From NCBI RefSeq assembly GCF_004010195.1, contig NC_057754.1, positions 12,628,609 through 12,692,608 of the forward strand: a stretch of DNA of 64,000 nucleotides, written 5' to 3'. The position numbers and the translations under genes are program-made. The notes beneath the pieces are model-generated. The model did not search any database, was not told the DNA's origin, and saw only the letters and a list, made by a program, of their open reading frames with translations. Position 1 is the first letter of the stretch; every line of letters begins with the position of its first letter. Below, piece after piece: positions 16,339 to 63,215 of the stretch. The stretch is from Chiloscyllium plagiosum (Eukaryota).

Positions 16339-16419
16339 GATTGAGGGAGCTGTTCCCGACCAAAGCCAACCTTACACGTGCGTAGCGCTATTTCTCCGTT
16401 GTGAGGCATGACCTGCTGC

Positions 16420-17670: not shown

Positions 17671-17807
17671 AATTCTGTTTAACTGGACCAATCAATCCCA
17701 AACATTTCCAATTTGGCAGGGATGATGCAGTTCTGTTTAACTGAACAGGACTTTATGAACACCAGCAGAAACAGACTGTGATGAACATAGCTCAGTCATG
17801 GATGCAA

Positions 17808-18340
17808 CTAACAGCAATCATTACAGTTTCTCATCAACTCACTGGTGTCTCTGCAGTTTGGATGATTGAGTGAATCCAAACTCACATACTCAGAACATAC
17901 GAACTGTCTCCCCTCAGTGTGAATTCCGTGGTGTATACTAAGTTGAGATGATTGTTTGCTGCCAGTCCCACAATAAGAGCACTTGAAAGGTCTCTTCTCT
18001 GTGAACACGTTGATGAGGTATCACTTCTCCTAAAAAATTGAAAGCAATTTAGTCTGGCCATTCAAAAGATCTTTCAGTCGTGTGACCTTGCTGTTGTGTC
18101 AGCGGGGGTATGACTGAGTAAATCCTTTCTCACACTCCAAGCAGGTAAATGGGCTCTTCTTGGTGTGAAATTGCTGGTGTTTCAGAAGATTGGCTGTCCA
18201 GATGAATCCATTCTAGAACATGTGAATGGCTTATCCCCAGTCTGATTGTGTTGGTGGAGAATAAGTTCAAATGATCTCCTGAAACCAGCCCCACAGCATC
18301 AGACTGGCCTCTCATTGGTATGAATATATAATGGTGTATC
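17808..18340 (-). pseudogene. Decayed C2H2 ZNF pseudogene
   Basis: TEKRPFKCSYCGTGSKQSSQLSIHHGIHTEGRQFVCSE. Confidence 0.8.
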
Positions 18341-18629
18341 AGCTGATCTTTCTCTATGACTAACTTAGAAAATATGTTTATAAAACAAGTTTATCTGAAG
18401 AAGACAAAACAATAATGCTGATTTTTCACAGATGTTGCCAGTAAGCTTTTCCAGTAACTTCTGTTTTCGTTTCCTATTTACAGCATCCTTTTACTTCAGT
18501 TATTATGTTCATAAAACTGTTCATCAAAAGGGAAGGACAGAAATTCAAAACTAAGAATTTAGTTTCCATTGAAACTCTAATGTTCTTCAATACCCCTCAT
18601 ATTCTCCACCTGACTATTATGTTCCAGGA

Positions 18630-19373
18630 CCAAATTACTGCAGATTCTGGAATCTGGACTGAAAGACAACAAACGGAGGTCACAGAGAGTCAGACAGAAT
18701 CCATGAGAGAGCAAGCTAAATTTTCAAGTCTAGACGAATCTTCATCAGATTAGTCCAACACCAACACCCTCCCTCTGCAAACACAGAAGATGAAACATCT
18801 GCACCTTCACTTCCTCCCTGCTCCCCATCCAATGGCCTAAACAGTCTTCCCAGATGAAACAGCATTTTACCTGTACCTCTTCCAATCTTGTGTATTGTAT
18901 TGACTACACCCAATGCGGCCTACACTATATTGCAGAAATCAAACAAAGACTGAGTGTCCGTTTTGCAGAACATCTCCAGTCTGGACACAGGCATTACCCT
19001 GACCTTCCAATAGCCAGTCATTTTAACACAGCTTCCTGCTTTCATGCCGAAGTGTTCCAGTGAATTCACTGGAACACTTCAGCATGCTTTCGGCATGAAA
19101 GCATGCTGGAGGAATGAAATCTCATCTTCAAACCAGGCACTTTACAGGCTTTTGGACTCAACATCGAGTTCAACACGTTCAAATTGTGAACCATTTCTTT
19201 CCTTTTCGCTTGTTACACTCTGTCACCATGTCCTCTCTCCCCTCCCCCCATCCCAATGGGACAGTCTGTTCTTCCCAGTCTGACAATTAGACACACCATT
19301 GTTTTGCCATTCTCACCTTCTGATCACTTAATCTGAGCTATTAACATCTTTTCTCCACAAGTACCCTACATCC
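18630..19373 (+). mobile_element. PLE 3' fragment (GIY-YIG) with an inverted terminus on the left
   Basis: FTCTSSNLVYCI...CGLHYIAEIKQRLSVRFAEHL; minus-strand ctgatga...gaaa remnant at ~18715-18750. Confidence 0.8.
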
Positions 19374-20079
19374 NNNNNNNNNNNNNNNNNNNNNNNNNNN
19401 NNNNNNNNNNNNNNNNNNNNNNNNNNNNNNNNNNNNNNNNNNNNNNNNNNNNNNNNNNNNNNNNNNNNNNNNNNNNNNNNNNNNNNNNNNNNNNNNNNNN
19501 NNNNNNNNNNNNNNNNNNNNNNNNNNNNNNNNNNNNNNNNNNNNNNNNNNNNNNNNNNNNNNNNNNNNNNNNNNNNNNNNNNNNNNNNNNNNNNNNNNNN
19601 NNNNNNNNNNNNNNNNNNNNNNNNNNNNNNNNNNNNNNNNNNNNNNNNNNNNNNNNNNNNNNNNNNNNNNNNNNNNNNNNNNNNNNNNNNNNNNNNNNNN
19701 NNNNNNNNNNNNNNNNNNNNNNNNNNNNNNNNNNNNNNNNNNNNNNNNNNNNNNNNNNNNNNNNNNNNNNNNNNNNNNNNNNNNNNNNNNNNNNNNNNNN
19801 NNNNNNNNNNNNNNNNNNNNNNNNNNNNNNNNNNNNNNNNNNNNNNNNNNNNNNNNNNNNNNNNNNNNNNNNNNNNNNNNNNNNNNNNNNNNNNNNNNNN
19901 NNNNNNNNNNNNNNNNNNNNNNNNNNNNNNNNNNNNNNNNNNNNNNNNNNNNNNNNNNNGTGAATGAGTGGTGGAGCGGGATAACCAAGCTGGAACTGGA
20001 TGGTCCTCCAACCAATAGAAGCAGAAGAAAGGAGCACGATGATTTAATTTGGCCCTTCCAGCCAGCTGCACCATTTATC

Positions 20080-20730
20080 GCCATCATTGCTGATTGTCCA
20101 ACTCAATCGCCTAATTCTGCCTTCTCCCCATAACCTTTGATCCCATTCGCCCTAAGTGCAAGATCTAGCCGCCTCTTCAATGTATTGGCATCAGTTACTT
20201 CCTGTGGTAATGAATTCCATGCGCGCACTCTTTGGGGGAAGAAATGTCTCCTCAACTGGTCCACCCCAAATCCTCAGACTGTGACCCGTGGGTCTGGACA
20301 CACCCACCATTGGGACATCCTATCTGCATCTACTCTGTCTCCTCCTTCAAGAATTGAAATCTCTAAGAGATCTCCCCTCATTCAACAGAACTCCAGCAAA
20401 ACTAATCCCAACCTCATCAATCTCTCCTCATATGTCAGTCCAGTCATCTACAGAATCAGTCTGATAAAATTTTGCTGCACTCATTTAAGACCAAGAGCAT
20501 TCCTCCTCAGAAAAGGAGACCAAAACTGCACACCACATTTCAGGTGTGCCCTCATCAAGGACCTGTATAATTTCAACAATGCATCCCTGCTCCTGTTTCT
20601 CTCAGATTCCAATAGGTTTCCTCCCTTTCATAATAAATAGGACAAATGCAGGGAAATAGGCTGTATGGAGAGACATTTTGGTCCATGTGGACCAGTTTGA
20701 GCCAAAGTGCTGCAGGTCTCTATGACTGTA
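20080..20730. mobile_element. CR1-like 3' fragments in mixed orientation (paralog ~55075-55730)
   Basis: Antisense of C-terminal ORF2 (aaggagaccaaaactgcaca = VQFWSP), then a plus-strand ctctatgact tail. Confidence 0.65.
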
Positions 20731-21299
20731 TAAACTGACATTTTCACAAATGCTGGGACTAATCCACTATGTAAGGATGTTTGGAAAATTACACCCAATG
20801 CATTCTCGATCCGTTTATGCTTGTTTTGGAATCATGGGATGTAAACATTCATGGCCAGTTGTCTTATCTGACGTTAGCCCATCAGTTTGTCAAATGTGAC
20901 TTCAGTCCACATCTCCAACCCTATCCCGTATTCTTCAGTCTACATTTGATAGTCCCTGTTCTCAAGGGGATGATTTATCTTGATATAATTTAAGTCTTCC
21001 ACATTACACATTACCAGATACAAATTAACCGAACTTTCAGCATAACTTGCCTCTTTGGACAGTTAAAGAAACACGTCTATCTGTAATTTATCCCCCTGCA
21101 CAAAGAAAGGCTTTTGTTGTGAAGGAAGAAACAGAAATCAATCTTTATTTGGTACAGATTTAATTAAGGAGTAAAGCATTTCATGTCTGTCTGCCCTGAC
21201 TCTGTCAGTAAATGTCTCTTTATGTGTTCTCCAGTCACCAACAAGTTTACTCAGCATTTGATAAAATTAACAGCTGCAATCAGTGTTACTAAAGTGTTT

Positions 21300-21450
21300 A
21301 TCCTGTGTGGCTGCCAAGGTGTCACAGCAGATCGGATGATTGACTGATTCCTTTCCCACACTCAGAACAAATGAATGGCTTTTCTCCAGGGTGAAGCCAC
21401 AAGTGTCTCAGCAGCCTGGATGTCTGACAGAATCCATTTCCACACACAGC
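21300..21450 (-). pseudogene. Small ZNF remnant (paralog ~56290-56450)
   Basis: Minus-strand [13 protein letters not shown] codons (ttcccacactcagaacaaatgaatggcttttctccagg). Confidence 0.65.
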
Positions 21451-22049
21451 ATTTTTTTTACAGAGGGTGGTGCAAGTATGCAATGAGCTGCCAGAGGAAG
21501 GGGTGGGGGCTGGTGCAGTTACAACATTTATAAGGCATCTTGATGAGTAAATGAATAGGAAGGATTGAGAGGGACGTGGGCCAAATGCTGGCAGATAAGG
21601 AGAGATTTATTTATGATATCTTGTCAGCATGGACAAGTTGGACCAGAAAGTCTGTTTCTGTGTTATACATCTCTATGTCTCTCCCTGTCTTTCTCTCTCT
21701 CTATGATGTCTTGCTGCAATCTGCTCCCAGTTCAGACACGGAGTTGTGTTTGGGGCTGTGTCAGTGGGAACTGGATTGCTTCCACTTCAAACCAATGTTA
21801 TCCAATCATATCCCTGAGGGCAGTACGGATACAGAGATTGTGGGGATGGAGGGTGGGGGAACTGAGGTCAGTGAGGGCGTGTGCAACAGAGACTGGCAGG
21901 GCACGTATGTCTCCAAATATGGGAGAGATTTTAGCTGATTTAATTATGTTAGACTTACCATTGAATATTCTGATGTACAGTTTGCTTATTCAGCTGTCAT
22001 TTGATATTAAGTGTGTCTGGAAAAATCAGCAAGAATTAGATAAAATATA

Positions 22050-22402
22050 ATCCCTCAGCCCTGACCCTCAAACAATGTCTGCTCCCTCTGCACTGACCCT
22101 CCGACAGTGCCCTCCCTCTTAGTGCTGACCCACCGACAGTGCCTGCTCCCTCAGCGCTGACCCGCCGACAGTGCCTGCTCCCTCATGCTGGCCTGCCAAC
22201 AATGCCCGCTCCCTCAGTGCTGGCACACCGACAATGCTCGCTCCCTCAGCAATGACCCTCCAACAGTGCCCGCTCCCTCAGCACTGGCCCACCGACAGTG
22301 CCTGCTCCCTCAGCGCTGGCCTGCCAACAATACCCGCTCCCTCAGTTGTGGCACACCGACAATGCCCGCTCCCTCAGCAATGACCCTCCGACAGTGCCCG
22401 TG
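22050..22402. repeat. ~32-bp GC-rich minisatellite, about 11 units
   Basis: Repeated gacagtgcccgctccctcagcactgaccctcc. Confidence 0.9.
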
Positions 22403-22634
22403 CTCTCGGCATTCTGATTGCAGCCTGGTCCTGCTTCACTGTTATACTCACTTGCACAGTTTTCAACAAGTTTTGAAGCAACCAAGAACATCGTCGATGA
22501 ATTCCTCTGCTAACTGATAACAGTGTCCTGGAAGTAAATGAAACAGAGAGGTGAGCTGGAAAACTCCTTGTCCCTGCCCCCTTTGACCAATTCCTGCCTA
22601 ATTTTCAGTACAGCCCAAAACCAACAGATATGTT

Positions 22635-23025
22635 TCTGTCTCTCCTTAGCAACAGGCCCCAAACCCTCAATAACTCTGGTCTCATCCTCAACAACAGGCC
22701 CAATATTATAGCTGTCTTCTATTTCATCTCTAGCTTCGGTCCAAAATCCTGACCAATCCCCATCTCATCCTTGACAAAGGCCTCATACTATGGTCAACTC
22801 CGCTTGCATCCTTAGCCACAGGCGTCAGGTCCTGACTAACTCGTTTTCCATCCTTAACCTTCGGCCCCATACCCTATCTACCAACATTCTTAGCAAAAAG
22901 GTCCAATTCCATTGCCATCTCAACACTGGCTTGGGTCCCAAACCCTATCCAACTCCGATCTTATCCTCAGTCATAGGACTCAAACACCTGGCTAGGTCCC
23001 ATCTCCTCGTTAGCAACAGCCCACA
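22635..23025. repeat. Highly degenerate ~41-42 bp tandem repeat (paralog ~57610-58000)
   Basis: catccttagcaacaggccc-like cores at ~22646, 22687, 22728, 22770, 22811, 22854. Confidence 0.55.
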
Positions 23026-24127
23026 AGGGACTGTAGCTTGTTGCAGGATATGTGACTATCCATGTAAGTAATATAGACCTATTACTAAAGCCCCACTTCT
23101 CCCAAGCACTGTGATTGGTGTAATTGCAGTACTCCACCCCAGGAGCCAGCAGGTAGTAATAGTTGGCACAGCCAAACAGGAACATTATGGTGCGTTGGAA
23201 TCAGGAGCAGACGCATGTCTTTTGGAGGTTGGTGTGGGTGGAAAAGAGGGGAACAGACAGGGCTGGAGTGGAAAGGTGTGTCGGGAAAGGTGTGGGCTTC
23301 AGCATTGAAATTATCAACAGAAGGATTAGAAACCTGAGGAATAGGACTGACGCCTAGAAATGTGAACCTTAGCAACAGACCAGAAAGCCTGAGGTCTTGG
23401 AATAGCAATAGAGCTGAAGGAGATTACAGAGATAGGGAGGTTGTCTGAGCTGGAGGAGGTTACAGAGAGAGGGGGAGAGAGTGTGCACGAGCCCTTGGTG
23501 ACCAAATGATAAAAGGCTGCTCCCTTTCCTCATACAGACGGAGGTCTGTAGTGCTGCGTGAAACTAAAAGCCAGTGACCTCCATGAAGTGGGAATGATCA
23601 TGGAGGGAGGGAGGTCTCTCTCTTTCTNNNNNNNNNNNNNNNNNNNNNNNNNNNNNNNNNNNNNNNNNNNNNNNNNNNNNNNNNNNNNNNNNNNNNNNNN
23701 NNNNNNNNNNNNNNNNNNNNNNNNNNNNNNNNNNNNNNNNNNNNNNNNNNNNNNNNNNNNNNNNNNNNNNNNNNNNNNNNNNNNNNNNNNNNNNNNNNNN
23801 NNNNNNNNNNNNNNNNNNNNNNNNNNNNNNNNNNNNNNNNNNNNNNNNNNNNNNNNNNNNNNNNNNNNNNNNNNNNNNNNNNNNNNNNNNNNNNNNNNNN
23901 NNNNNNNNNNNNNNNNNNNNNNNNNNNNNNNNNNNNNNNNNNNNNNNNNNNNNNNNNNNNNNNNNNNNNNNNNNNNNNNNNNNNNNNNNNNNNNNNNNNN
24001 NNNNNNNNNNNNNNNNNNNNNNNNNNNNNNNNNNNNNNNNNNNNNNNNNNNNNNNNNNNNNNNNNNNNNNNNNNNNNNNNNNNNNNNNNNNNNNNNNNNN
24101 NNNNNNNNNNNNNNNNNNNNNNNNNNN

Positions 24128-24490: not shown

Positions 24491-24617
24491 TTTGAATGGT
24501 TCCTTGTACCACAGTGCCATGGTCAGTTTGCTCATCTTCCCTACAGCTCCCACTCTCATCCAAACAGGGAGCAAAAATCTCAAACCTGTTAGACAAGCCG
24601 AAGAGCTGAGGAGAACA

Positions 24618-25050
24618 TGAGGACTGCAGATACTGGAGAATCGGAGTCAAAAAGTGTGGTGCTGGAAAAGCATGGCAAGTCAGGCAGCATCTGAGTAGTA
24701 GGAGAGTTGACATTTCAGTCATAAGCCATTCATCAGGAATATGGTGGTGGGGAGGGGGCAAGGGGGCTGGGACATAAATAGAAGAGTGGGGCTGGAGCAT
24801 GGGCTGGGGGGAAGGTAGTTAGGAAGGTGATAGCTAGATGGAGATAGAAGATGGTGATAGGTCGGAAAGAAGGTGGAGCGGATAAGTGGGAAGGAAGATG
24901 GACAGGTAGGACTGTTCAAGATGGCAGTGCCGAGTTGGAGGTTGGATCTTGGATGAGTTGGGAGGAAGGGAGATGAAGAAACTGGTGCAATTGACGTTGA
25001 TGCCATGTGAGTAGGTTGCCAAGGTGGAAGATGAGGCATTCTTCCTCTAA
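24618..25050 (-). mobile_element. PLE 3' end with decayed hammerhead
   Basis: Minus strand attcctgatgaatggcttatgactgaaatgtc; upstream EECLIFHLG-type GIY-YIG C-terminal codons (~25020-25048). Confidence 0.7.
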
Positions 25051-25116
25051 TCATCTGATGGCTTGGATTTGGTGGTGGAGGGAAGCTCCTTCAGCACTAA
25101 CCTCTGGTTCCCTCTA

Positions 25117-25320
25117 TTCTGGATTAGTGGTGCTGGAAGAGCACAGCAGTTCAGACAGCATCCAAGGAGTAGCAAAATCAACGTTTCGGGCAAAAGTCCT
25201 TCATCGGGCTTTGCCCGAAACGTCGATTTCGCTGTTCCTTGGATGCTGCCTGAACTGCTGTGCTCTTCCAGCACCACTAATCCAGAATCTGGTTTCCAGC
25301 ATCTGCAGTCATTGTTTTTT
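25117..25320. mobile_element. 204-bp fold-back hammerhead mini-element
   Basis: TSD cctct(g/a)gttccctcta at 25101-25116 and 25321-25336; ~78-bp inverted arms; minus-strand ccgatga-a-ggacttttgccc-gaaacgtt. Confidence 0.88.
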
Positions 25321-26899
25321 CCTCTAGTTCCCTCTACCTGCCTCACTCTCAGTTACACCCTTCTGTCCATGACCACTGACTGAATTTGAGGTAGTCGATC
25401 TAAGGGGCCTTCTGAAAAAGTGTCCAGGTAACTCTTTCCCCCCCCCCTTATGATGTGTAGCAGTGTTCAGAGCTCAGACTCCAGCTTGTCAATCTGAACC
25501 AGAGTTTCTCAAGCAACTTTCTGTGGATGTAGTCACTATGAGCTACAGTAGGTCCACCAGATTCCACACAACGCTGTTATGACACATCATCACATCCAAC
25601 ATCTCTATTTTAATTATTTAGTTAATTTGATTTTTAAAAAAATATACTGAAAAAATGCCCACTGTTGGGGATATGAATTGACCATGTCCCAGAGACCAGA
25701 ATTGGATGAGTGCAGATATCTTGAAGGATTGTGTGGCTGGTAGAGAATACAGAGATAGGAATAATCGCTATCATTGAGGGATTTGAAAACAAGGACCTGA
25801 TATTATTTTAAAATGTTGCTGTGTTTCAACTGGTGAGGTTTTCAGGTCAGTGTGAGTGAGCATGCAGGCAGCGGAGTGTTGCGTGAGCTGAAGATTACAG
25901 GGAGATTGAAAGTGGGACGTGGATCAGGAGTGTGTTAGAGTCATTCAGTTTCGAGGTTACAAAGGATTGGATGAGGTTTTCAGCACATGGAGCTGTGACT
26001 GTGTTGGAGTCAGGCCACGTCACTGAAATGGAAATAGAACGTCACACTGAGGATGTGGCTCTGTGATTGAAAGCTGATCTCCAAGTCTGATATTCCACCA
26101 ACTTTGTGAGGGGCCTGGTTCAGGCAGTTACCAGAGCAAGTGATACAGTTGAAGTGAGGAGGTTTGTAACAGAGACTGAAGCGTACAGCTTTCAGTGAAC
26201 AAAGAATCAGGAGTAGGCCTTTCAGCTGTTCTTCCATTGAATGACATCATGACTGGTCTGTGGCCTTACTCCATATACCTACCTTTGGCTCATATCCCTG
26301 AATACATTTGCTGAACATAAGTTTATTTGTCTCAGATTTAGAACTAACAGTTAGTGATTGAGCATCAACTGCCACTTTTGGAACATAGTTCCAAACATTT
26401 CCCACCCTTTTTGTGCAGAAGTAATTCCTAGCATCTCTCCTAAATAGACTGTGCTCCCAAGTTCTAACCAAATTGGAGGAAATATCTATTCATCCCCCAT
26501 TGGATATTGGGACATTGAGAGATTCGGAGGGAGATGGTGGTGGTCACATGTGCCTGCTCCCCTGGTCCTTCATGGTAGTGGAATTGGCAGATTTGGGAGG
26601 TTTTGCTAAAATTTAGGTTGAGCTGTTGTTAACATCTCCTGCTACCACGCACACAGTCCATATGAGCAGGTTCCCTCCCCGAAATGGCATCAATGAATCA
26701 GTTGGGTTTGTAATGACAATCGGTAGCTTCTGTCATCACTTTTTTCTGAGTGTTCAGCCCCACAAATTGCCACCTTAATTCAACTCAGTTTTGCAACCTA
26801 CTGTGTCACTGGGTAAGTGTAAAAAATGGTGATAATACATTCTCCTACAATCAGGCAGAGTCGTGTGGTTTTGTGAAGGGGGAATCATAGCTGATAAGT

Positions 26900-35530: not shown

Positions 35531-36074
35531 ACCTGCATCAGGAATGATGAAGGGCTTATGCGCAAAATGTCTATTTCCCCTACTCCTCAGATGCAGCTTG
35601 ACTGGCTGTGTTTTTGTGTAAAAGGACTTGCTGTTTGCTTTTGCTCACACCAATGAATGAACCTTAGTCATTGGGCAGTTTGTGTTGATATTATTAAACC
35701 CAGCTGTATTGAATGTGCTGGTATTGTAGGTAAAATATTGATACAATTGTGTATCTGTATAGTAAATTGTGATCATTTTCAAAATGTCGCTGTACAGCAA
35801 CACACTATCCACCTGCAGATTGTCTGAAAAGTGATTTTCAGTATTGGATTTTGATGTCATTGTTGTTTATATCCAAAACATGTTTTCTGGACCTGTTTCT
35901 GATTGTTTGTAAACACCACAAGTTCAATGAATTATTTGGGATAAAAATAATACAAATCAGGTTTTCATTAAAAGTATGTTGCATCAACTCTGCCTCATTC
36001 TGAGTCCCTTAGAGATAAGATAATCATATATCTTCCTCATATGAGCAGTTGGGAGAAGGCACATCCAGAGTGAG

Positions 36075-36365
36075 ATTAGATTCCCGACAGTGTGGAAACG
36101 GGCCAATCCAATCGACCCTCCAAAGAGAAACCCACCCTGACCCATTTCTCTCAGGCTAATGCACCTAGCACTATAGGCAATTTAGCATAGCCAATTCACC
36201 TGACCCGCACATCTTTGGACTGTAGGAGGAAACCAGAGCACCCGGAGGAAACCCACGCAGACATGGGGAGAATGTGCAAATTCCACAGAGACAGTCGCAC
36301 GAGGCTGGAATTGAACCTGAGACCATGGTGCTGTGAGGCAGCAGTGTTAACCACTGAGCCACTGT
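36075..36365 (-). mobile_element. HE1-like V-SINE
   Basis: Full head, V-core and agattagatt tail. Confidence 0.88.
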
Positions 36366-36399
36366 GATAGCTGGAAATTTAGTTACAAAAGCTGTTGTG

Positions 36400-37790: not shown

Positions 37791-38025
37791 GAAAAGTATG
37801 GAGTTGGAAAAGAATAGCAGGTCACACAGCATCCGCGGAGCTGGAGAGTTGATGATTCAGGTATAAGCCCTTCATTAGGAGTGTGGAGTGAGGGGCAGCT
37901 GAGAAATGAATAGGAGCCTGGGGATCGGGAGGAGCGTGGGGATCGGGAGGAGGTAGCTGAAGGTGATAGGTAGATGTGGGGTGGAGCTTGGTGATAGGTC
38001 GGAGGGGAGGGTGGAGCGGATTGGT
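37790..38025 (-). mobile_element. PLE 3' end remnant at the left edge of duplication copy B
   Basis: Similar to 24640-24885; decayed ctaatgaagggcttatacctgaatc. Confidence 0.6.
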
Positions 38026-38839: not shown

Positions 38840-39730
38840 ACGTCGGGTTTTGACGAATTCACCCAATTTATCATAAGCAGTTGTACTCGTGTTCTGTGCA
38901 TGGACGATGCTTCAGCCATCTTTTGATCTGTCTGAACATAAATGCAGTCTTAATGAAGAGTAGCCATGAAAATCTGGCAATTTTTGGGAATATTCCAGCT
39001 AGGCTAGAAATTCATTGTTGCATTCACATTGAGCAGAAGACTTTCACCTGCTCTGAATGCAGGAGAAGATTCACTATCTTGGGGCGGCACAGTGGCTAGC
39101 ACTGTTGCCTTGCAGCGCCAGGGACCCGGGTTCGATTCCAGCCTTGGGCAACTGTCTGCGTGGAGTTTGCACATTCTCCCCGTGTCCGTGTGGGTTTCCT
39201 CCCACAGTCCAAAGAGGTGCGGGTTAGGTGAATTGGTCATGCTAAATGGCCCATAGTGATGGTGCATTAGTGGGGAATGGGTCTGGGTGGGTTGCTCTTT
39301 GGAGGGTCGGTGTGGACTTGTTGGCCGAAGGGCCTGTTTCTGCAATGTAGGGAATCTATTCCAATCTAATCTATCTCCTCCAATCTGCATTCAGACTGGG
39401 GAGAGGCCATTCACCTGCTTCATGTGTGGGAAGGAATTCAATCATACATCCAAATTATTGTCATAGCAATGAGGTCATGGAGACAGGCCATTCAGTTGGT
39501 CTGAGTATGGGAGGAATTCAATCGGAAATACGCTACTCAGCACACGACTACTGGAGAGAGACCATTCACCTGCCCCCAGTGTGGAAAATGATTCATTTGT
39601 TCATCTGCCTCCTAACATACAGATAAGGTCACACTGGGGAGAGACCATTCACCTGCTCCAAATTTGGGAAGGAATTCCTGGAGTCGTTCCACCTGCTAAG
39701 ATACCAGCAAGTTCACCAGTGTCTGCAGTT
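38840..39730 (+). pseudogene. Decayed C2H2 ZNF pseudogene with SINE at ~39081-39372
   Basis: Paralog of 5840-6760 with the same SINE insertion. Confidence 0.8.
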
Positions 39731-42145: not shown

Positions 42146-43456
42146 TCACTTGTGAAGTCGCTGGTGGCGAAGCAGGTGAGCTGACTGAGTAAATCTCTTC
42201 TCACACATTGAGCAGGTAAATGGCCTCTCCCCAGTGTGAACCCGCTGGTGTATCAGCAGGTTGGAGTTTGTCGTGAATCCCTTCTCACACTCAGAGCATG
42301 TGAAAGGTCTCTCTCCAGTGTGAATGCGCTTGTGTACAGTGAGGTCAGATGATCGCCTGAATCCAGACCCACACTGAGAGCACTTGAATGGTTTCTCATC
42401 AGTGTGAATACGTTGATGTCGCATCAGATCTGCAGAACTTTTAAAGCATTTCCCACAAATTGAACACTTAAAAGGTCTCTCGTCAGTATGAACATGTTGA
42501 TGGGACAAAAGACCCTTGGAACTTTTATAGCACTGCCCACAGTCTTGGCATTTGAAAGGTCGCTCCTCACTGTGTACGTGCTGGTGTGCCATGAGATGAG
42601 ATGACTGAGTGAATCCCTTCCCACACAGTGAGCAGGTAAATGGCCTCTCCCTAGTGTGAACTCGCTGGTGCGTCATGAGGTAAAATGACCGAGAGAATCC
42701 CTTCCCACATTCAGTACAAGTGAATGGCCTCTCTCCAGTGTGAATTCTCTGGTGTATACGGAGGTCAGATGACCATCTGAACCCAGTCCCACAGTGACAG
42801 CACCTGAAAGGTCTCTCCTCAGAGTGAATACGCTGATGGGACATCAATTCAGTGGAACTTACATGGCCTTTCCCACAGTCCGGGCACTTAAAAGGCCTTT
42901 CTTCAGTGTGAACCCGATGGTGCTTCAGCAGGTTGGATGTCCGAGTAAATCCCTTCCCACACTCTATGCAGGTGAAAGGCTTCTCCCCACTGTGAACTCT
43001 TTGGTGTGCGCAGAGATCATATGATCGACTGAACCCTGTCCCACACTGAGAGCACTTGAACTGTCTCTCCTCAGTATGAACACTTTGGTGACGTATCAGC
43101 TCCCCAGTCGTTTTAAAACCCTTCCCACAAACTGAGCATTTAAAAGGTCTCTCATCTGTGTGAACACGTAGATGGGACATTAGTTCGCTGGAACGTTTGT
43201 AGCAGTTCCCACAATCTTGACATTTGAAAGGGTCAGCGTGAGCTCGCTGGTGCCTCAGCAGCATTGGTGATTCAGTGAATCCCTTCTGACATATGGAGCA
43301 GATAAATGGCCATTTCTCAGTGTCAGTATGATGGTGAATTTTGTGAAATTCCAGATCAGAAATGTAACTAACTGTCTGCTCGCATGCCCCAGTTTTCCAT
43401 AGTATCTCCCCAACATGACTGCAAAAAGCCAGATGACTGTCTGAACCCTTGCTCAT
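42146..43456 (-). CDS. Tandem C2H2 zinc-finger protein, 436 aa, 14 intact fingers, no KRAB domain seen
   Basis: Uninterrupted ORF with 14 CxxC-x12-HxxxH units and TGERP-type linkers; start codon uncertain. Confidence 0.88.
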
Positions 43457-43846: not shown

Positions 43847-44145
43847 AGATTAGATTAGATTAGATTACAGTGTGGAAACAGGCCCTTCGGCCCAACAAGT
43901 CCACACCGACCCGCCGAAGCGAAACCCACCCATACCCCTACATTTACCCCTTACCTAACACTACGGGCAATTTAGTATGGCCAATTCACCTGACCCTGCA
44001 CATCTTTGTGATGTGGGAGGAAACCAGAGCACCCGGAGGAAACCCACGCAGACACGGGGAGAACGTGCAAACTCCACACAGTCAGTCGCCTGAGTCGGGA
44101 ATTGAACCTGGCGCTGTGAGGCAGCAGTGCTAACCACTGTGCCAC
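43847..44145 (-). mobile_element. Young HE1-like V-SINE, present in copy B only
   Basis: TSD ccattgttt at 43838-43846 and 44146-44154; (agatt)n tail; empty site at ~10850. Confidence 0.95.
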
Positions 44146-45320
44146 CCATTGTTTTCTTAGGTCAAAACTTAACTAATCTCAGGCACTCCTAGCCAGTCTT
44201 ACACATCCCAGTTCCTATAAACCTTGAGGCTTTCTAACATTCGCCGGTCTGTGCATTCAAACCAAATCTTAACCAGCCACCACACCTGATTGTCAGGATG
44301 TCAGCCAGTGGAACCTCACAGAATATGAGTTCCCTGATTTGAGCTGTTAATCTGGTGTAGTCAGGGAATCCTGGCTGGCATAAAAAGGTTAAGCATTAGA
44401 GATACTGACACTCTGGTTTGTGACTCTGTGTGAGGCAGTACTATAGTCAAGGACTGTTCATGTGTAAATGAAGAATTACTTGGTGATTGGATACCAGCCT
44501 CTATAGAGGCCATGCTCACTGACCTATAGGCTATTTAAATTATTGTTTCCAGACATTTCCCCATCACTGAAGTAAAACTGTCTGGCCTGTTGTTACCGGG
44601 CTTCTCTTCACAAGCTTTTTTGAACAAGGTGTAATGTTTGCATTTTTCAGCTTCTGGCACCACCATTAGAGCTAAAGAACCTGAAAATATTACAGAAACG
44701 CCACTACAATTCTACTCTCACTTCCCTTTATATTCTTTGGTTTATCTCATCCACACTTTGTGCCTTATTCATATTGAGTTCAGATAGCCTATGTAACATT
44801 CTTATCAATTTTAAAATATTCAAGTGACTCAAATATCTAGTCTTTTACTATGACCTGAGCAGAATCTTTGTCTTTGAGAATGACTTATTTAATACATTGG
44901 CTATGACTGTCTGCATTGCAATTTTGGTCCTGAGGAGTGCTATTCAATATTTAACCTCCTTTACAATTTCAAAGCCTAAACAAGAGTTTTAAGATTTCCC
45001 ACCCTTTTGACTGCTGTTGAATTTCAAAATCACTTTTTACTTATTTTATTTGCTGTTTCATCTTCCCTCTGAACTTTCTGTATTCAGCCTAGTTCTAAAT
45101 TTTCGCTTTCTATTTAATGTGTAATATGCACAATTTTTCTCTTTTACCTTAATTTTCTAAGATCATGAGATATAGAAGAAGCAGGACATTAAGCTTTTCA
45201 AGTCTGCTCTATCATTCAATGGGATCATAGCTGATCTGATAATTCTCAGCCCCACTTGTGTCCCTTTTCCCAATAACCTTAACTTCCCTCCTGTATAAAG
45301 ATCTGATCAACTGGTCACTG

Positions 45321-48129: not shown

Positions 48130-49990
48130 GAAATGCTATAACTCTAGTATGTCAGATGGATCAGTTTTTGTTCAATGTGTGCAGGAGGGTTTCCTGACAC
48201 GATATGTCAAAGAGCCGACAAGAGGGGAGGCCATACTGGATCTAGTGCTTGGTAATGAAGCAGGCCAGGTGTTTGATTGGAGGGAGCTGAGCATTTTGGA
48301 GAGAGTGATTATAATTCAGTTACGTTTGGTTTAGTGATGGAAAGGGATAGGTACATGCCATAAACCAAGAGTTATCAATGAGGGAGTGGCAATTATAATG
48401 TGATTAGGCAAGACTTAGGATGCATAGAATGGGGTAGCGAAATGCAGGGATGGGGACAATCAAAATGTGGAGCCAGTTTAAGGAACAGATATCGTCTGTC
48501 CCTGATAGGTATATCCCTGTCAGGCAGGGAGAAATTGATGAGGTAAGGGAACCGTGGTTTATTACAGAAATGCGCATGTCTTGTTAAGTGGAAGAAGAAG
48601 GCTTATGTGACGATGAGATAAGATTATTCAGATAAGGTGATGGAGAGTTACAGATTAGCAAGGAAGGATTTAAAGAGAGAGTTAAAATGAGCAAAGAGAG
48701 GACATGAGCAGTCTTTAGCAGGTAGAATAAAGGAGAACCCTAAAGTGTTCTATAGATATGTGAGGAATAAAAGGATGACTAGGGTAGGAATAGGGCCAGT
48801 CAAAGACAGAAGTAGGAAGTTGTGTGTGAACACTGTGGAGATTGAAGAGATGCTAAACCAATATTTCTCATTGGTTTTCACTCAGGTAAAGGAGGATAAG
48901 AATTAGATACAAGATATTAGACTAGAAAGGATCAGGTTAGTAAGGAAGAGATGTTATCAATTCTAGAAGGAGTGAAAATAGACAAGTCCCCTGGACCAGA
49001 TGGGATTTATCCAAAGGTTCTCTGGCAAGTTAGGGAGGAGGTATTGGAGCCTTTGGCTTTAATTTTGAGTCGTTATTGTTTACAGGTTTAGTACCAGAGG
49101 ACTGGAGGATTACAAATGTTGTGCCCTTGTTCAAGAAGGAAGTGAGGACTGCAGATGCTGGAGATCAGAGCTGAAAATGCGTTGCTGGAAAAGCGCAGCA
49201 GGTCAGGCAGCATCCAAGGAGCAGGAGAATCGACGTTTCGGGCATGAGCCCTTCTTCAGGGTTCATGCCCGAAACGTCGATTCTCCTGCTCCTTGGATGC
49301 TGCCTGACCTGCTGCGCTTTTCCAGCAACACATTTTCACCCTTGTTCAAGAAGGGCAGTAGAGATGATCCAGGTAATCATCGACCAGTGAGCCTTACGTC
49401 TGTTGTAGGATAAGTTTTGGAAAGAATTATGAGAGATCGGATTTACAATCATCTAGCAAGCAACAGTTTGATTGCAGACAGTCAATGTGGTTTCGTCAAG
49501 GTCAGGTCACAACCCTCATTGAGTTTTTTGAGAATGTGTCCAAGCATGGGGATGAGGTTCGGGCAAATGATGTGGTGGACATGGACTTCAGTAAGGCCTT
49601 TGGTAAGATTCTGCATGGTAGGCTATTGGAGAAAATGCAGAGGCATGGGATTGAGGGTGATTTAGCAGTTTGGATTGGAAACTGGCTTTCTATAAGAAGG
49701 CAGCGAGTGGTGGTTGATATTCAGCCTGGAGAGCAGTTACGAGTGATGTGCCACAAGGATCTGTTTTGGGACCACTGTTGTTTGTCATTTTTATAAATGA
49801 CTTAGTTGCAGCCATTGGTGGATGGGTTAGTAAGTTTGCAGAAGACACTAAAGTTGGTGGAGTACTGGACAGTGTGGAAACGTGTTGCAGGGGGACTTGG
49901 ATAAACTGTAGAATTGAGCTGAGAGGTGGCAAATGGAGTTCAATGCAGATAAATGTGAGGTGATTCACTTTGGGAAGAATAACAGGAAGG
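48130..49990 (+). mobile_element. CR1 ORF2 fragment
   Basis: DFSKAF, PQGSVLGPLLF, SKFAEDTK. Confidence 0.9.
49139..49338. mobile_element. 200-bp fold-back hammerhead mini-element
   Basis: TSD cccttgttcaagaag at 49124-49138 and 49339-49353; 76-bp near-perfect inverted arms 49172-49247 and 49263-49338; intact minus-strand core 49232-49259. Confidence 0.92.
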
Positions 49991-50589
49991 CGGAACACCT
50001 CATCTTCCGCCTCGGAACCCTTCAGCGTCAGAGCGTTAATATGGACTTCACCTGTTTCCTCATTTCCCCTCCCCCCACTTGACCTCAATTCCAACCTTCC
50101 AGCTCAGCAACATCCTCATGACCTGTCCCATCTGTCAATCTTCCTTCCCACCTATCTGCTCCACCCTCCTGTCTGACCTAGCACCTTTACCCCCATCTCT
50201 ATCCACCTATTGCCCTCTCAGTTATCTTCTCTCCAGCTCCACCCTCCTCTCAGGGAGAAAGGAGCAGCAGCTACTGCTTTGCTGGGCAGGAAGGAGCCGT
50301 TTCACATGCTCACGGCCCGACGTTCGCGCTCAGATAATAGGGAACGCTCAATAGGGCTGCTTCTGGTCCTCCAGTCCTTCCGATTGGTCACATTGTGACG
50401 GAATGGGGCGAAACACAAACTCAAATGCAATGGCATGACCTTATCCAAATGATGTTTCAAAGCTTCTGCCAATAGACAAAGTGGTTGCTGTGACAACTGA
50501 CCAATCAGATTGAGGGAGCTGTTCCCGACCTAAGCCAACCTTACACGTGCATAGCGCTATTTCTCCGTTGTGAGGCATGACCTGCTGCT

Positions 50590-52989: not shown

Positions 52990-54180
52990 TACTGCAGATG
53001 CTGGAATCTGGACTGAAAGACAACAAACGGAGGTCACAGAGAGTCAGACAGAATCCATGAGAGAGCAAGCTAACTTTTCAAGTCTAGATGAATCTTCATC
53101 AGATTAGTCCAATACCAACACCCTCCTTCTGCAAGCACAGAAGATGAAACATCTGCCCCTTCACTTCCTCCCTGCTCCCCATCCAATGGCCTAAACAGTC
53201 TTCCCAGATGAAACCTGTACCTCTTCCAATCTTGTGTATTGTATTCACTACACCCAATGCGGCCTACACTATATTGCAGAAATCAAACACAGACCGAGTG
53301 TCCGTTTTGCAGAAAATCTCCAGTCTGGACACAGGCATTACCCTGACCTTCCAGTATCCAGTCATTTTAGCACAGCTTCCTGCTTTCATGCCGAAAGCAT
53401 GCTGAAGTGTTCCAGTGAATCACAGCACAAACTGGAGGAATGACATCTCATCTTCAAACCAGGCACGTTACAGCCTTTTGGACTCAACATTGAGTTCAAC
53501 ACCTTCAAATTGTGAACGATTTCTTTCCTTTTCACTTGTTACACTCTGTCACCATGTCCTCTCTCCCCTCCCCCCATCCCAATGGGACAGTCTGTTCTCC
53601 CCAGTCTGACAATTAGACACACCATTGTTTTGCCATTCTCACCTTCTGATCACTTAATCAGAGCTATTAACATCTTCTCTCCACAAGTACCCTACATCCA
53701 CTGGGCCCACACCTGTACTATAAACTGTTAGCTCGTCCACAGTTCTGATGAAGAGTGACGGTGGTACAGTGGCATGGCACGGTACACCACGGTGGCTTAG
53801 TGGTTAACACTGCTGCTTCACAGCACCAGAGACATGGTTTCAATTTCCACCTCAGGCAACTGTCTGTGTGGAGTTTGCACATTCTCCCTGTGTCTGCGTG
53901 GGTTTCTTTCAGGTGCTTCAGTTTCCTCCCACAGTCCAAAGATGTACAGGTCAGGTGAATTGGCCTTGCTAAATTGCCTATAGTGTTAGGTGCATTAGTC
54001 AGGGTTATATATAGGGCGGGGTAATGGGTCTGGTGGGTTACTCTTCGGAGGGTCGGTGTGGATTGTTGGGCCTGTTTCCATACTGTGGGGAATCTAACCT
54101 AATCTTGACTGGAAATGTCAGCTTGCTCTCTGCCCCAGATGCTGTCTGACCCACTGTGATCTCCACCATTTGCTGCTTAC
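52990..54180 (+). mobile_element. PLE 3' fragment with inverted left terminus; right hammerhead split by a SINE
   Basis: YCI...CGLHYIAEIK GIY-YIG remnant; ctgatgaagagt (53744) ... gactggaaatgtcag (~54107). Confidence 0.8.
53770..54103 (+). mobile_element. HE1-like V-SINE
   Basis: Head, V-core and aatctaacctaatc tail. Confidence 0.88.
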
Positions 54181-54429
54181 GCTATGTTGTTCTAAATACT
54201 GCCCGCCTACGTCTTTAATCGAGGTTTGTCTTAGATAACTAAGATAGTACCCATGAAGATGATCCCGTTCCTGTTGAGAAGCTTGTAACTGTTGGAACTG
54301 CAGCTTGTTGTTGGGCTCTGCACTGAGGGGTGCGGCCAGTTCTCAGGGGTTCCTTCCTTCCCACTCCAGTGAGGAGTGGGTAAGGATCAGGAAGCTCCCT
54401 GATTGGTTGTCTGGCCCAGCCTGATCAAG

Positions 54430-54557
54430 TGAAGAAGCCCTTCCTGAAGAAGGGCTCATGCCCGAAACGTCGATTCTCCTGTTCCTTGGATGCTGCCTGA
54501 CCTGCTGCGCTTTTCCAGCAACACATTTTCAGCTCTGATCTCCAGCCCTCATTTTCT
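54430..54557 (+). mobile_element. 128-bp hammerhead mini-element
   Basis: TSD cccagcctgatcaag at 54415-54429 and 54558-54572; CTGAAGA-a-GGGC/tcat/GCCC-GAAACGTC at 54444-54471. Confidence 0.92.
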
Positions 54558-57037
54558 CCCAGCCTGATCAAGCTTGTGCTATGAGGACCTGGGCCTCACC
54601 GCCGAGACATGCCGAACAGGTGTCTCTGATTCAAACGGCGCAACAGTGACTTACTTTTCAGTGGTTAAATTATTCTCAACATGTTTACAAAACCTCCTAA
54701 TCCACCCTCCCAGCTCCATAAACTGAAGGATGATCACACCCGCCATGATGTTCCACCCACAGAGTGGACCACCACATACCGTTTGCTCCATCGCCCAGTG
54801 TTGCAGCAAATTGACAGCGGTTCTGCATCAATAGGGGGGAGGGGACAGGACTGGATGTCCCATTTGGAGCGGATGGTTTTCCAATGAGTCAGAGTGACTG
54901 AAGGACAGGGCTGAATGAGGGAGCTGGAAACGATGATCCTCCAACGAGTCGGAGTGAATGAGTGGTGGAGCGGGATAACCGAGCTGGAACTGGATGGTCC
55001 TCCAACCAATAGAAACATAGAAGGTAGGAGCACGATGATTTAATTTGGTCCTTCCAGCCAGCTGCACCATTTATCGCCATCATTGCTGATTGTCCAACTC
55101 AATAGCCTAATTCTGCTTTCTCCCCATAACCTTTGATCACATTCGCCCGAAGTGCAAGATCTAGCCGCCTCGTCAATGTATTGGCATCAATTACTTCCTG
55201 TGGTAATGAATTCCATGCGCGCACTCTTTGGGGGAAGAAATGTCTCCTCAAATGGTCCACCCCAAATCCTCAGACTATGACCCCTGGGTCTGGACACACC
55301 CACCATTGGGACATCCTCCCTGCATCTACTCTGTCTCCTCCTTCTAGCATTGAAATCTCTAAGAGATCTCCCCTCATTCATCTGAACTCCAGCAAAAATA
55401 ATCCCAACTTCATCAATCTCTCCTCATATGTCAGTCCAGTCATCTACAGAATCAGTCTGATAAAATTTTGCTGCACTCATTTAAGAGCAAGAGCATTCTT
55501 CCTCAGAAAAGGAGACCAAAACTGCACACCACATGTCAGGTGTGCCCTCACCAAGGACCTGTATAATTGCAACAATGCATCCCTGCTCCTGTTTCTCTCA
55601 GATTCCAGGAGGTTTCCTCCCTTTTACAATAAACAGGCCAAGTGCAGGGAAATGGGCTGTGCATGGAGAGACATTTTGGTCCACGTGGACCAGTTTGAGC
55701 CAAAGTGCTGCAGGACTCTATGACTCTATAAACTGACATTCTCACAACTGCTGGGACTAATCCACTATGTAAGGATGTTTGGAAAATTACAACCAATGCA
55801 TTCTCTATCCATTTATGCTTGTTTTAGAATCATGGGATGTAAACCTTCATGGCCAGTGGTCTTATCTGATGTTAGCCCATCATTTTGTCAAATGTGACTT
55901 CATTCCACATCTCCAACCCTATCCCGTATTCTTCAGTCTACATTTGATAGTCCCTGTTCTCAAGGGGATGATTTACCTTGATATAATTTAAGTCTTCCAC
56001 ATTACACATTACCAGATACAAATTAACTGAGCCCTTTCAGCATAACTTGCTTCTTTGGACAGTTACAGAAACACGTCTATCTGTAATTTATCCCCCTGCA
56101 CAAAGAAAGGCTGTTGTGGTGAAAGAAGAAACAGAAATCAATCTTTATTTGGTATAGATTTAATTAAGGAGTAAGACATTTCATGTCTGTCTGCCCTGAC
56201 TTTGTCAGTAAATGTCTCTTTATGTGTTCTCCAGTCACCAACAAGTTTACTCAGTATTTGATAAAATTAACAGCTGCAGTCAGTGTTACTAAAGTGTTTA
56301 TCCTGTGTGGCTGCCAAGGAGTCTCAGCAGGTGGGATGATTGACTAAATCCTTTCCCACACTCAGAACAAATGAATGGCTTCTCTCCAGGGTGAAGCCAT
56401 AAGTGTCTCAGCAGCCTGGATGTCTGACAGAATCCATTTCCACACACAGCATTTTTCACAGAGGGTGCAAGAATGGAATGAGCTGCCAGAGGAAGGGGTG
56501 GGGGCTGGTGCAGTTACAACACTTATAAGGCATCTTGATGAGTAAATGAATAGGAAGGGTTGAGAGGGATGTGGGCCAAATGCTGGCAGATGAGGTGAGA
56601 TTTATTTATGATATCTTGTCAGCATGGACAAGTTGGACCAGAAAGTCTGTTTCTGTGTTGTACATCTCTATGTCTCTCCCAGTCTTTCTCTCTCTCTATG
56701 ATGTCTTGCTGCAATCTGCTCCCAGTTCAGACACGGAGTTGTGTTTGGGGCTGTGTCAGTGGGAACTGGATTGCTTCCACTTCAAACCAATGTTATCCAA
56801 TCATATCCCTGAATGGACACAGAGATTGTGGGGATGGAGGGTGGGGAACTGAGGTCAGTGAGGGCGTGTGCAACAGAGACTGGCAGGGCACGTTTGTCTC
56901 CAAATATGGGAGAGATTTTAGCTGATTTAATTATGTTAGACTTACCATTGAATGTTCTGATGTACAGTTTGCTTATCCAGCTGTCATTCGATATTAAGTG
57001 TGTCTGGAAAAATCAACAAGAATTAGATAAAATATAA

Positions 57038-60534: not shown

Positions 60535-60860
60535 AGAATTAGAATCCCTACAGTCTGGAAACAGACCCTTCAGCCCAACAAGTCCACACCAACCCTCTGA
60601 AGAGTAACTCACCCAGACCCATTCCCCTACCGTATATTTACCCAGACTAGTGCATCTAACCTACAGATCCCTGAACACTACGGGCAATTTAGCATGGCCA
60701 ATTCATCTAACCTGCACATCTTTGGATTGTGGGAGGAAACCAGAGCGCCCGGAGGAAACATAGGAAAAATGTGCAAAGTCCACACAGCCCAAGGCTGAAA
60801 TTGAACCTGGGCCCCTGGTGCCGAGAGGCAGCAATGTTAATCACTGAGCCACCGTGGCAC
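60535..60860 (-). mobile_element. HE1-like V-SINE
   Basis: Head, V-core, ttagaattaga tail. Confidence 0.85.
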
Positions 60861-61399
60861 TCTAGTTACAAACCAGATGGGATGGTTTGTTAGGAATCAC
60901 ACCCACATACAGAACTCATGAACAGTGTCTTGTCACTGAATGGTGTAATGTATTTTCAGATTGTCTAACTGGTTAGAGCTCTTTCCACAGACAGTGTACT
61001 GGAACACTCACTGCAGCTGCAAGTGTCTCAGAATTTGTTCAATCACATTCTAAATAAAGCTTTCCGCAGACAGAACATTTCTCCCTTGATGGTCGAAGGC
61101 TGATGATTTTTAAGCCCTGCGGGGGGGGTCAGTCTGTCAGATTTTGACATGATGTTCAGTTGAAGTCTCCATCCAATCCGCTGTGAAAGAAGATCAAAGT
61201 GTCAGGATCAGGAGCAGCTCACAACAGAAAAAAAACAATTTGGAGAACCTAAGATGAGAAGCAATCAATTGAACAGAAGCCAAACTCCCCAGAGGTTCCC
61301 CAGAAAGCTCTGTCTCCAAGGTTACCCCTATACAGAGATGGCCAGGGAAGGCAGACTGACAGGCAGTGATCACTTCAACATTTGGGGCTTGTGTTCTAA

Positions 61400-62545
61400 A
61401 CTTTTTTTTATTTCAATAATATACTTAATTCATAAAATACTTTGATGGTCTGTACAGTTGAACATGCCATACATAAACATTCCATTTCTTTGCATACCGA
61501 AACAGAGTAATCATTCCTATTTACAGGTCTGTACAATTATATTTTTAGCTGAGGCATCAGCAGAGCCCAAATGACTGCGCGGGCCCCCTGTTCTTCTTTA
61601 GGCAGGCAGACGTTACACGGTGGTCTTTCCCCACCCCACGTTGGCAGCAGCTGCTCCAAGCTTCAGCGCGTCCCTCAGCATGTAGTCCTGGACCTTGGAA
61701 TGTGCCAGTCTGCAACACTCAGTCGGGGTCAACTCCTTCAGCTGGAAGATCAACAGGTTTCGGACCGCCCAGAGAGCGTCCTTCACCGAGCTGATGATCC
61801 TCCAGGCACAGTTGATGTTCGCCTCAGTGTGCGTCCCGGGGAACAGACCGTAGAGCATGGAGTCCCGCGTCACGGCACTGCTTGGGATGAACCTCGACAA
61901 ACACCACTGCATTCCTCTCCAGACTTCTTCTGCATAGGCACAGTGTTTTTCTTCATAAACTTCTCCACGAAGGACAGTTGATACGGAACGGTCCAACTAC
62001 TCGGAGCGTTCCACGGCAGCGAGGCCAGGCCCATCCTTCGGAACACCGGGGACAGGTAGAACCTCAGTACGTAGTGACACTTGGTGTTTGCGTACCGGGG
62101 ATCCACGCACAGCTTGGTGACTGCAGCGGCACAGGTTCTGGAAATAGGCCAGACCTGTGCCATGTATAATAGCAATGACAGTGCCTCACAGCTGATGACC
62201 AGGTTTTTTCCCGCGATGGAGAGCGACCGTAGCTTCAACCTCACTTTGCTGATACGCTCCTCCCAAGACTCGGTGCACACCCCAGCCCCCCCACCCCCCG
62301 AACCAAATACCCAGCACTTTCAGGTGGTCGGTCCTGACAGTGAAGGGGATTGAGGATTGGTTGGTCCAGTTCCTGAAGAGCTGGAAATGTGTTGCTGGAA
62401 AAGCGCAGCAGGTCAGGCAGCATCCAGGGAACAGGAGAATCGACGTTTCGGGCATAAGCCCTTCTTCAGGAATGTTTTGGTTGGTCCAGTTCCTGAAGAG
62501 CATGGCCTTGCTCTTGCCTCGGTTTACCTTGGCCCCCAGTTCCAA
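61400..62545 (-). mobile_element. Tx1-clade (L1-Tx1) LINE 3' fragment, internally deleted
   Basis: GAKVNRGKS, LKVLGIWFG, SLSIAGKNLVI, YVLRFYLSP, CAYAEEVW, KDALWAVRNLLIF; poly(A) 3' end at ~61402. Confidence 0.8.
62382..62476 (-). mobile_element. 95-bp hammerhead mini-element inserted in the Tx1 ORF
   Basis: 25-bp TSD ttggttggtccagttcctgaagagc at 62357-62381 and 62477-62501; minus-strand core CTGAAGA-a-GGGC/ttat/GCCC-GAAACGTC at 62442-62469. Confidence 0.92.
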
Positions 62546-62989: not shown

Positions 62990-63215
62990 ATGTGGAGGTG
63001 CCGGGATTGGACTGGGGTGGACAAGGTCAAAAGTCTCATGACACCAGGTTACAGTCCAACAGTTTGTTTTAAATCACAAGCGTTCAGAGTGACACTGTGC
63101 ATGAAGAAGCAGCAGTGCTCTGAAACCTTGGGATTCCAAATAAACCTCTTGGGACTATAATGTGGTGTCGTGTAACTTCTGACCTTGCCAACCCCAGTTC
63201 AACATCGACACATGA
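62990..63215 (+). mobile_element. Old short interspersed repeat with decayed hammerhead-like motif
   Basis: Inverted ends (gggattggactgggg...gacaccag...tagtcc/cagtccaac versus gggactata...ggtgtc...ccccagttcaac) around atgaagaagcagcagtgctctgaaac. Confidence 0.45.

Follow-up and report, generated by a model that had tools for sequence, protein, structure and literature searches.

Short hammerhead insertions in the window

The window, the whole 64,000-nt stretch of Chiloscyllium plagiosum DNA analysed here, contains five listed short insertions related to a hammerhead ribozyme sequence, together with older copies and fragments assigned to a Penelope-like element (PLE). Positions within the copies are counted from C3 of the CUGA box (position 0), and the predicted cut falls after +27. 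The features, with target site duplications abbreviated as TSDs, are the following.

54415-54429 (+): left TSD of the 54430 insertion, 15 bp, exact repeat
54430-54440 (+): 11-nt fold-back or stutter leader, read from its sequence as re-copied bits of the hammerhead core, with predicted pairing to the core
54441-54471 (+): minimal type-I hammerhead motif, with C3 at 54444, stem II and a zero-loop palindromic helix III
54472-54557 (+): long tail of the 54430 copy, matching the PLE leader as far as the downstream priming site
54558-54572 (+): right TSD of the 54430 insertion, exact repeat
49124-49138 (no strand): left TSD, a repeat, of a two-armed insertion inside a LINE-like repeat; empty sites known
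49139-49260 (-): long arm spanning -1 to +122, with an intact core at 49235-49259
49258-49338 (+): short inverted arm, +7 to +87, forming a long hairpin with the long arm
49339-49353 (no strand): right TSD of the 49139 insertion
15709-15906 (no strand): segmental-duplication paralog of the 49124-49353 insertion, without 32 bp at the palindrome centre and without the core
25101-25336 (no strand): two-armed insertion of a second subfamily, core not intact; short arm 25116-25208 (-), long arm 25210-25320 (+)
62357-62501 (-): single short arm (62382-62474, C3 at 62469) between 25-bp TSDs
24611-25081 (-): older PLE copy in which a decayed hammerhead and long tail follow about 330 nt of body
37795-38021 (-): older PLE copy, about 135 nt of body and a short tail
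35545-35615 (+): old, decayed short copy
49998-50252 (+): PLE body fragment, the end of the endonuclease region and the 3' UTR, without a hammerhead

The core, stem II and GAAAC are intact at 54444-54468 (+), 49235-49259 (-) and 62445-62469 (-), with a two-mismatch copy of the core at 25183-25207 (-), and the hammerhead pattern gave no match in 100 shuffles. The preliminary description had reported three intact motifs near the 5' ends of their elements, with a predicted cut after GUC at 54471; the count and the cut position are correct, but in the 49139 insertion the motif lies at the centre of a palindrome. Only two of the five insertions, 54430 and 62382, are single-armed, the former with a 9-nt internal deletion in its tail near 54546, the latter starting at -5/-4 and representing the cleanest monomer of the window. 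The other three (49139, 15724 and 25117), formerly taken for monomers, are two-armed, inverted fold-back palindromes with the motif at the centre, and the 25117 insertion belongs to a different subfamily without an intact core. The insertions, TSDs and motifs described earlier are therefore real, whereas the fold-back structure of three of the five copies had been missed.

TSDs measure 15 bp at 54415/54558, 15-16 bp at 49124/49339, 15 bp at 15709/15892 and 25 bp at 62357/62477, in agreement with the 15-25 bp originally assigned to every insertion; the exception is 25117, where the repeat is either an exact 10 bp or, allowing one mismatch, 16 bp (25101-25116/25321-25336). Empty sites, in which the target occurs once, were found for the 62357 site (locus L231) and the 49124 site (loci L076, L149 and L257), and none for 54415 or 25101 among the sampled loci. 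In the segmental duplication, the position corresponding to the 54430 insertion appears to lie inside an N gap (19374-19959), so that an empty site cannot be read there. As already proposed, 15724 is the paralog of 49139, the two representing one event within a segmental duplication whose flanks are 90% identical. The centre of a palindrome can thus vary between copies that stem from a single event, and a difference there does not by itself demonstrate a rebuilding of the mirror arm at every insertion. The 32-bp difference at the hairpin centre between 15709-15906 and 49124-49353 may reflect loss after insertion or an assembly effect.

The statement that the insertions encode no protein and lack Pol III boxes agrees with our data: their ORFs span only 20-54 codons, a size expected by chance, and a simple pattern search of the insertions found neither an A nor a B box. 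An ATG in loop II of the 54430-copy hammerhead opens a 26-codon frame (54459-54539); this ATG is missing in several loop variants and is not conserved.

Affinity of the insertions to a Penelope-like element

We searched the 3.56-Gb genome with the 128-bp element. Four of the 30 loci cut out for this query continue upstream into a common body, which encodes GIY-YIG or reverse transcriptase (RT)-like motifs in three of the four. Longer copies contain a GIY-YIG endonuclease region with CCHH-type residues (motifs read in L016, L099 and L101), preceded in L099 and L101 by a CX4CxxC linker. Pfam matches to GIY-YIG were below the cut-off (E 0.0075 and 0.11), and the nearest Atlas neighbours of the endonuclease region were GIY-YIG clusters (0.96-0.97). 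Broken copies also carry YIDD and neighbouring RT-like motifs, putatively those of a PLE-type RT; searches of Pfam and PDB returned no RT match for these broken copies. Neither an intact full-length element nor an intact ORF was recovered from the sampled loci, and the apparent long ORFs of a first scan were mostly assembly gaps. The older copy at 24611-25081 matches a natural reference copy at 74%.

The hammerhead module ends the GIY-YIG-bearing copies and in others runs directly into the leader of the long PLE ORF, which starts near +162; the module is accordingly the pLTR/5' leader of the PLE unit, and partial tandems place it at both ends of the ORF. Judged from these motifs and junctions, the hammerhead and its tail are the end module of a Neptune-type PLE. 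A CX2-5CxxC linker before GIY-YIG is given in the available text of PMC8557442 as a signature of Neptune/Nematis that is absent in Poseidon, and the clade of the source PLE appears to be Neptune-type, not Poseidon.

Partial tandems composed of a module, 120-420 nt of ORF leader and a second module are numerous in loci L164-L192 and point to template jumps onto short RNA fragments. More distant families (L043:8553-8798, L044, L057 and L150) have the tail motif in common and differ in the hammerhead-like sequence upstream.

5' ends pile up at hammerhead stem I

The ends of the copies were mapped by aligning arms to six natural reference copies, in a sample of 160 stretches of 10 kb each, taken at even spacing from 19 of the largest contigs and amounting to 1.54 Mb once N is left out. 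The sample yielded 258 arms, of which 226 were kept after 32 arms, those of the distant families and low-identity ones among them, had been dropped. Assembly gaps or edges censored 41 of the 226, 29 of them body-bearing, leaving 185 measurable 5' ends; since this censoring hits mostly longer arms, the share of short copies is overstated.

Nearly half of the measurable 5' ends (91/185) fall between -9 and +5, with 42 at -5 to -3 and a mode at -4/-3, compared with 34 upstream of -9 and seven at the predicted cut site (+26 to +30). The other 53 are located beyond +5 but not in the cut-site bin, which implies that ordinary truncation happens too. The stop rate per base was 0.051 within -9 to +5, versus 0.0026-0.0032 upstream and 0.0032 at +33 to +70, corresponding to a pile-up about 16 times the background, and 0.0075 in the cut-site bin; for three subfamilies taken singly, the rate within -9 to +5 was 0.045-0.053. 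Among 30 young copies chosen by their tails only, 17 of the 27 measurable 5' ends lay in the same interval, three of these representing one duplicated event and one the window's own copy. A simulated uniform-truncation control called 17 ends against 16 true ones among 400 and produced no such peak, ruling out an alignment artefact. In the genome samples, the truncation points thus gather at the hammerhead and are not evenly spread, which strongly supports the second reading offered in the preliminary description, namely PLE insertions that stop just 5' of the CUGA core.

A(-4), with which the 5' strand of stem I begins, is preceded by pyrimidines and begins an ATT in all six natural reference copies, a context that we take to fit the initiator consensus. 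A splice acceptor at the pile-up was ruled out by the absence of AG at -5/-6 in the same six copies. An internal TATA-less promoter is described for Penelope of D. virilis in the available text of PMC2377424.

Among 29 loci chosen for the ORF leader, 24 have another arm right after the leader fragment, and in 13 of these 24 the arm starts at -9 to +5, from which it appears that the RT copies to -4 and then jumps to another RNA. A G stands just 5' of A(-4) at six of ten ORF-jump junctions (p 0.02 against 25%; two possibly templated), with the same extra base at three RNA-contig joints, and would fit the copying of a cap. G was found at only 6 of 31 evenly sampled junctions and in four of nine tail-selected copies, several of which can be read from the opposite arm, and it is not the commonest loose-end letter at -4 in raw RNA reads; the cap-like extra G is therefore a weak signal of a template end.

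3' ends and the pairing of arms

The 3' ends are bimodal, with 79 of 226 at +85 to +99 and 107 of 226 at +118 or beyond, the two classes centring at about +89 and +124-126; DNA contigs confirm the long 3' end. The 226 arms combine into 176 events: 50 have two arms (doubles), and of the 126 with one arm 67 are long and 59 short. In 107 of the 176, only the end module is present. Long and short tails are paired in 49 of the 50 doubles (p 5e-14, evenly spaced samples) and in 15 of 16 tail-selected doubles, indicating one long and one short start site per insertion. The EN+ PLE unit is described as a pLTR with an adjacent inverted, 5'-truncated copy and a one-sided tail of 30-40 bp (PMC3846280 and PMC8557442, available text), and the inverted truncated copy with a tail at one end that recurs in these 49 events fits this definition.

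TSDs were detected in 44 of 113 events, versus 0 of 142 in the null set; 24 of 36 young doubles have TSDs of 10-16 bp, 18 of them of 14-16 bp. Microhomology between target and template at the priming ends was 0.7-0.8 nt in 24 events, near the approximately 0.67 nt that by our own estimate would arise by chance; microhomology-guided priming was ruled out, and the near-chance value is consistent with the non-homologous internal initiation described in the accessible portion of PMC11167929. Arm lengths are possibly correlated (3 long-long, 4 mixed and 40 short-short, p 0.005), the counts being small and affected by gaps. Event density is about 114 per Mb, or roughly 400,000 events genome-wide by extrapolation; the short events, 107 in 1.54 Mb, extrapolate to about 250,000.

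Two events have extra sequence between their arms, 121 nt unrelated to the references at L120:5805-6075 and 69 nt of repeated body pieces at L089:8938-9245, suggesting template borrowing or stutter during junction sealing.

Ribozyme motif, predicted folding and RNA reads

CUGANGA and GAAA boxes, a NUH triplet, stem II and a palindromic helix III are all present, and by these marks the motif fits the minimal type-I hammerhead (min-HHR); the Rfam hammerhead models gave no match at E<=1, and Rfam miRNA matches to the hairpins were set aside as chance matches. The core is intact in 46 of the 140 arms that span it; N7 and loop II vary whereas stem II does not, and no compensatory pairs were seen among these arms. 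Stem I has three of four pairs in its commonest form and four of four in six copies, shows no compensatory double change, and has a predicted pairing probability of about 0 in monomers; the earlier caution about a weak stem I was well founded. The predicted probability of stem II reaches 0.91-1.0 in 62382 and in one natural copy with body, but is 0.003 in the 54430 copy with its 11-nt leader and 0 in the long hairpins of 49139 and 25117; the 54430 leader is thus predicted to block the fold of its own ribozyme.

Fold-back leaders like that of 54430 occur at 22 of 30 query-selected loci, on five internal haplotypes. The 9-nt tail deletion is present at 12 of 30 query-selected loci, body-bearing copies included, and in none of 36 evenly sampled tails; it was ruled out as the marker of a mini-family because it recurs on different haplotypes and in body-bearing copies. 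None of 54 cores in the 1.54-Mb sample has a same-strand tandem partner within 600 bp, which places the sampled copies outside the definition of a retrozyme.

The RNA data come from one poly(A) single-cell run with the same species label, from which 2,307 reads mapped. Read depth reached about 1,000 over the module but stayed below 180 upstream of it and at about 20 over the ORF leader, with reads in both orientations. Running on into unrelated sequence in 92% of cases, again in both orientations, the reads look like stubs carried in host transcripts. The module boundaries are confirmed by loose read ends, which fall at A(-4) (106 reads), at +123 to +126 and at +85. No common RNA start position was seen in this poly(A) single-cell library.

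Origin of the short copies

The reading that we favour, with somewhat better than even confidence, is that the insertions are short copies of the PLE hammerhead end module, likely run-offs from an RNA that starts at stem I. Under such a scheme, the PLE would nick both target strands about 15 bp apart and prime one cDNA from each, with a different internal priming site for each strand, about 90 or 125 bases inside the RNA; we base this two-strand, two-site priming on the in vitro activity of an Anolis PLE protein, which, in the accessible part of its description, works from two sites and extends both strands. Most templates would be unit-length RNAs initiated at the initiator-like sequence around A(-4), such that priming near the RNA 5' end would give run-off products of 90-130 nt, and read-through RNAs from tandem copies would give the longer copies. 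At the end of the template, the RT may stutter, fold back or jump to another RNA, generating the 54430 leader, the palindrome centres and the partial tandems. The hammerhead would be copied uncut, and the resulting stubs would be dead on arrival. Stem I is the probable start of the template. Rather than forming a new ribozyme family that spreads by itself, the short insertions are probably dead-end by-products of an element of known type.

The same PLE stubs could instead be made on a longer template if the RT stalls at -4, if the cDNA folds back there, or if a nuclease cuts at ATT. Such a stop would suit the partial self-complementarity of the core region, a fold-back that many junctions use, the breadth of the stop interval (-9 to +5), the weakness of the cap-G signal, and the preference of the Anolis PLE endonuclease for 5'-ATT-3' near the ORF-pLTR junction, as given in the accessible part of PMC11167929. 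However, clean single-arm copies, and ORF-jump junctions free of any fold-back, stop at the same base, and the stop comes after the RT has already passed the only stable hairpin, stem II, with the RNA upstream pyrimidine-rich and weakly structured and no AG acceptor at -5/-6 in the six reference copies. We consider a stall or processing event of this sort unlikely. Hammerhead cleavage of the template RNA as the source of the copies is harder still to reconcile with the data: the conserved core, with free N7 and loop II and a fixed stem II (46/140 arms intact), and the slightly raised stop rate at +26 to +30 (0.0075, seven events) would accord with it, but the main pile-up lies 32 nt upstream of the cut, so that most templates were uncut, same-strand tandem cores are absent (0/54), stem I has a pairing probability near 0 in monomers, and hammerhead mutants of the Anolis Poseidon element PAc still insert (PMC11167929, available text). 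Cleavage is, in our estimation, very improbable, and the data indicate that the hammerhead remains uncut in most inserting templates.

The first reading offered in the preliminary description was an independent, monomeric mini-ribozyme family mobilised in trans, that is, a SINE-like or retrozyme-like mini-element whose short copies are transcribed and re-mobilised by a PLE. Stubs beginning at -4 would carry any internal promoter along with the priming sites, short events are extrapolated to about 250,000, solo pLTRs and mobilisation in trans are known in rotifers (PMC3846280, available text), and retrozymes have been proposed to derive from pLTRs (bioRxiv 10.64898/2026.07.22.740005, available text). 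Yet short and body-bearing copies have internal haplotypes in common, the 54430 leader and the 9-nt deletion recur on different haplotypes, 5' junctions vary from copy to copy, and no lineage with a fixed 5' end and private variants was found, these comparisons resting on few diagnostic sites and no full tree. Among 40 scored hits there were no close daughter copies of the 128-bp element, and only the window copy matched exactly over all 128 bases. Moreover, 92% of the RNA reads continue into unrelated sequence in both orientations, and the PAc protein depends on sequence lying about 55-60 nt past the priming sites (PMC11167929, available text), which the stubs would lack if the PAc rule holds here. 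An independent family mobilised in trans is therefore not supported, and we hold it to be improbable.

Returning to run-off from an RNA that starts at stem I, a broader and more tentative proposal, to which we give slightly less than an even chance, is that the stubs are a fossil record of the PLE cycle, comprising a capped RNA starting at stem I, a dimeric RT-endonuclease, two fixed priming sites, strong-stop-like run-offs of 90-130 nt, and telomerase-like sealing by stutter, fold-back or jump. If true, this model would unite the pLTRs, the inverted arm and the one-sided tail, and would locate the start of PLE transcription to a single base. The element itself is ordinary, truncated PLE ends that carry minimal hammerheads having been published already; the value of the insertions is statistical, as they document the points at which PLE reverse transcription begins and ends. 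The data give single-base predictions for both the PLE cycle and the role of the hammerhead, and two useful mechanistic leads, namely how sharply the copies start at stem I and how strictly long arms pair with short ones.

Relation to known systems

The insertions resemble the EN+ PLE unit, as far as its available descriptions go, in the inverted arm, the tail of about 35 nt on one arm only, the variable TSD, partial tandems, heavy 5' truncation, solo pLTRs, and the combination of CX4CxxC with a CCHH GIY-YIG as in Neptune/Nematis. They differ in that most events here consist of the end module only (107/176), with 5' ends at one site. PAc, from Anolis carolinensis, offers a further parallel in the accessible portion of PMC11167929: two internal RT start sites bound the tail, both strands are extended, no primer homology is needed, and the hammerhead lies upstream of the start sites and is uncut in the insertion template; the protein is predicted to be a dimer. 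The PAc ORF, as described there, starts in stem II, whereas here the loop-II ATG opens 26 codons only.

The motif is similar to the min-HHR of metazoan PLEs, so far as described, in its zero-loop palindromic helix III, the single unpaired base before stem II and the weak stem I. It departs from them in its 4-bp stem II and in copy number, extrapolated here to hundreds of thousands as opposed to thousands. The available text of PMC4209133 describes most min-HHR motifs as single, probably from truncated PLEs, with some close pairs on opposite strands, and reports no cleavage of monomers and weak cleavage of dimers; sharks are not named in that text. Non-LTR retrozymes are likewise small, non-coding and PLE-related, with a type-I hammerhead, but are described, in the accessible parts of PMC7229834 and bioRxiv 10.64898/2026.07.22.740005, as head-to-tail tandems of 150-450 bp units with at least two ribozymes and circular RNAs; the PLE stubs, in contrast, occur singly or as inverted arms and carry the ribozyme at their edge. 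Our literature search, with subscription literature and supplements outside its scope, found no paper on shark PLE stubs or on a pile-up of 5' ends at the hammerhead.

Other features of the window

The segmental duplication spans about 19-20 kb at 90-96% identity, with window positions of approximately 5046-23627 corresponding to 38029-58624. Arrays of C2H2 zinc fingers with an 84-bp period lie on the minus strand at 9237-10312 and 42214-43300, the latter encoding 14 fingers in one frame and the former split over two frames. Near-perfect short inverted repeats at 19043-19086 and 63062-63145 are unlike the PLE hammerhead family. A dispersed repeat of 230-320 bp with tRNA-like boxes at its head, which we presume to be a SINE, has seven copies in the window:

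6098-6406: tRNA-like-headed repeat
12732-12962: tRNA-like-headed repeat
36073-36366: tRNA-like-headed repeat
39082-39373: tRNA-like-headed repeat
43852-44146: tRNA-like-headed repeat
53787-54105: tRNA-like-headed repeat
60539-60864: tRNA-like-headed repeat
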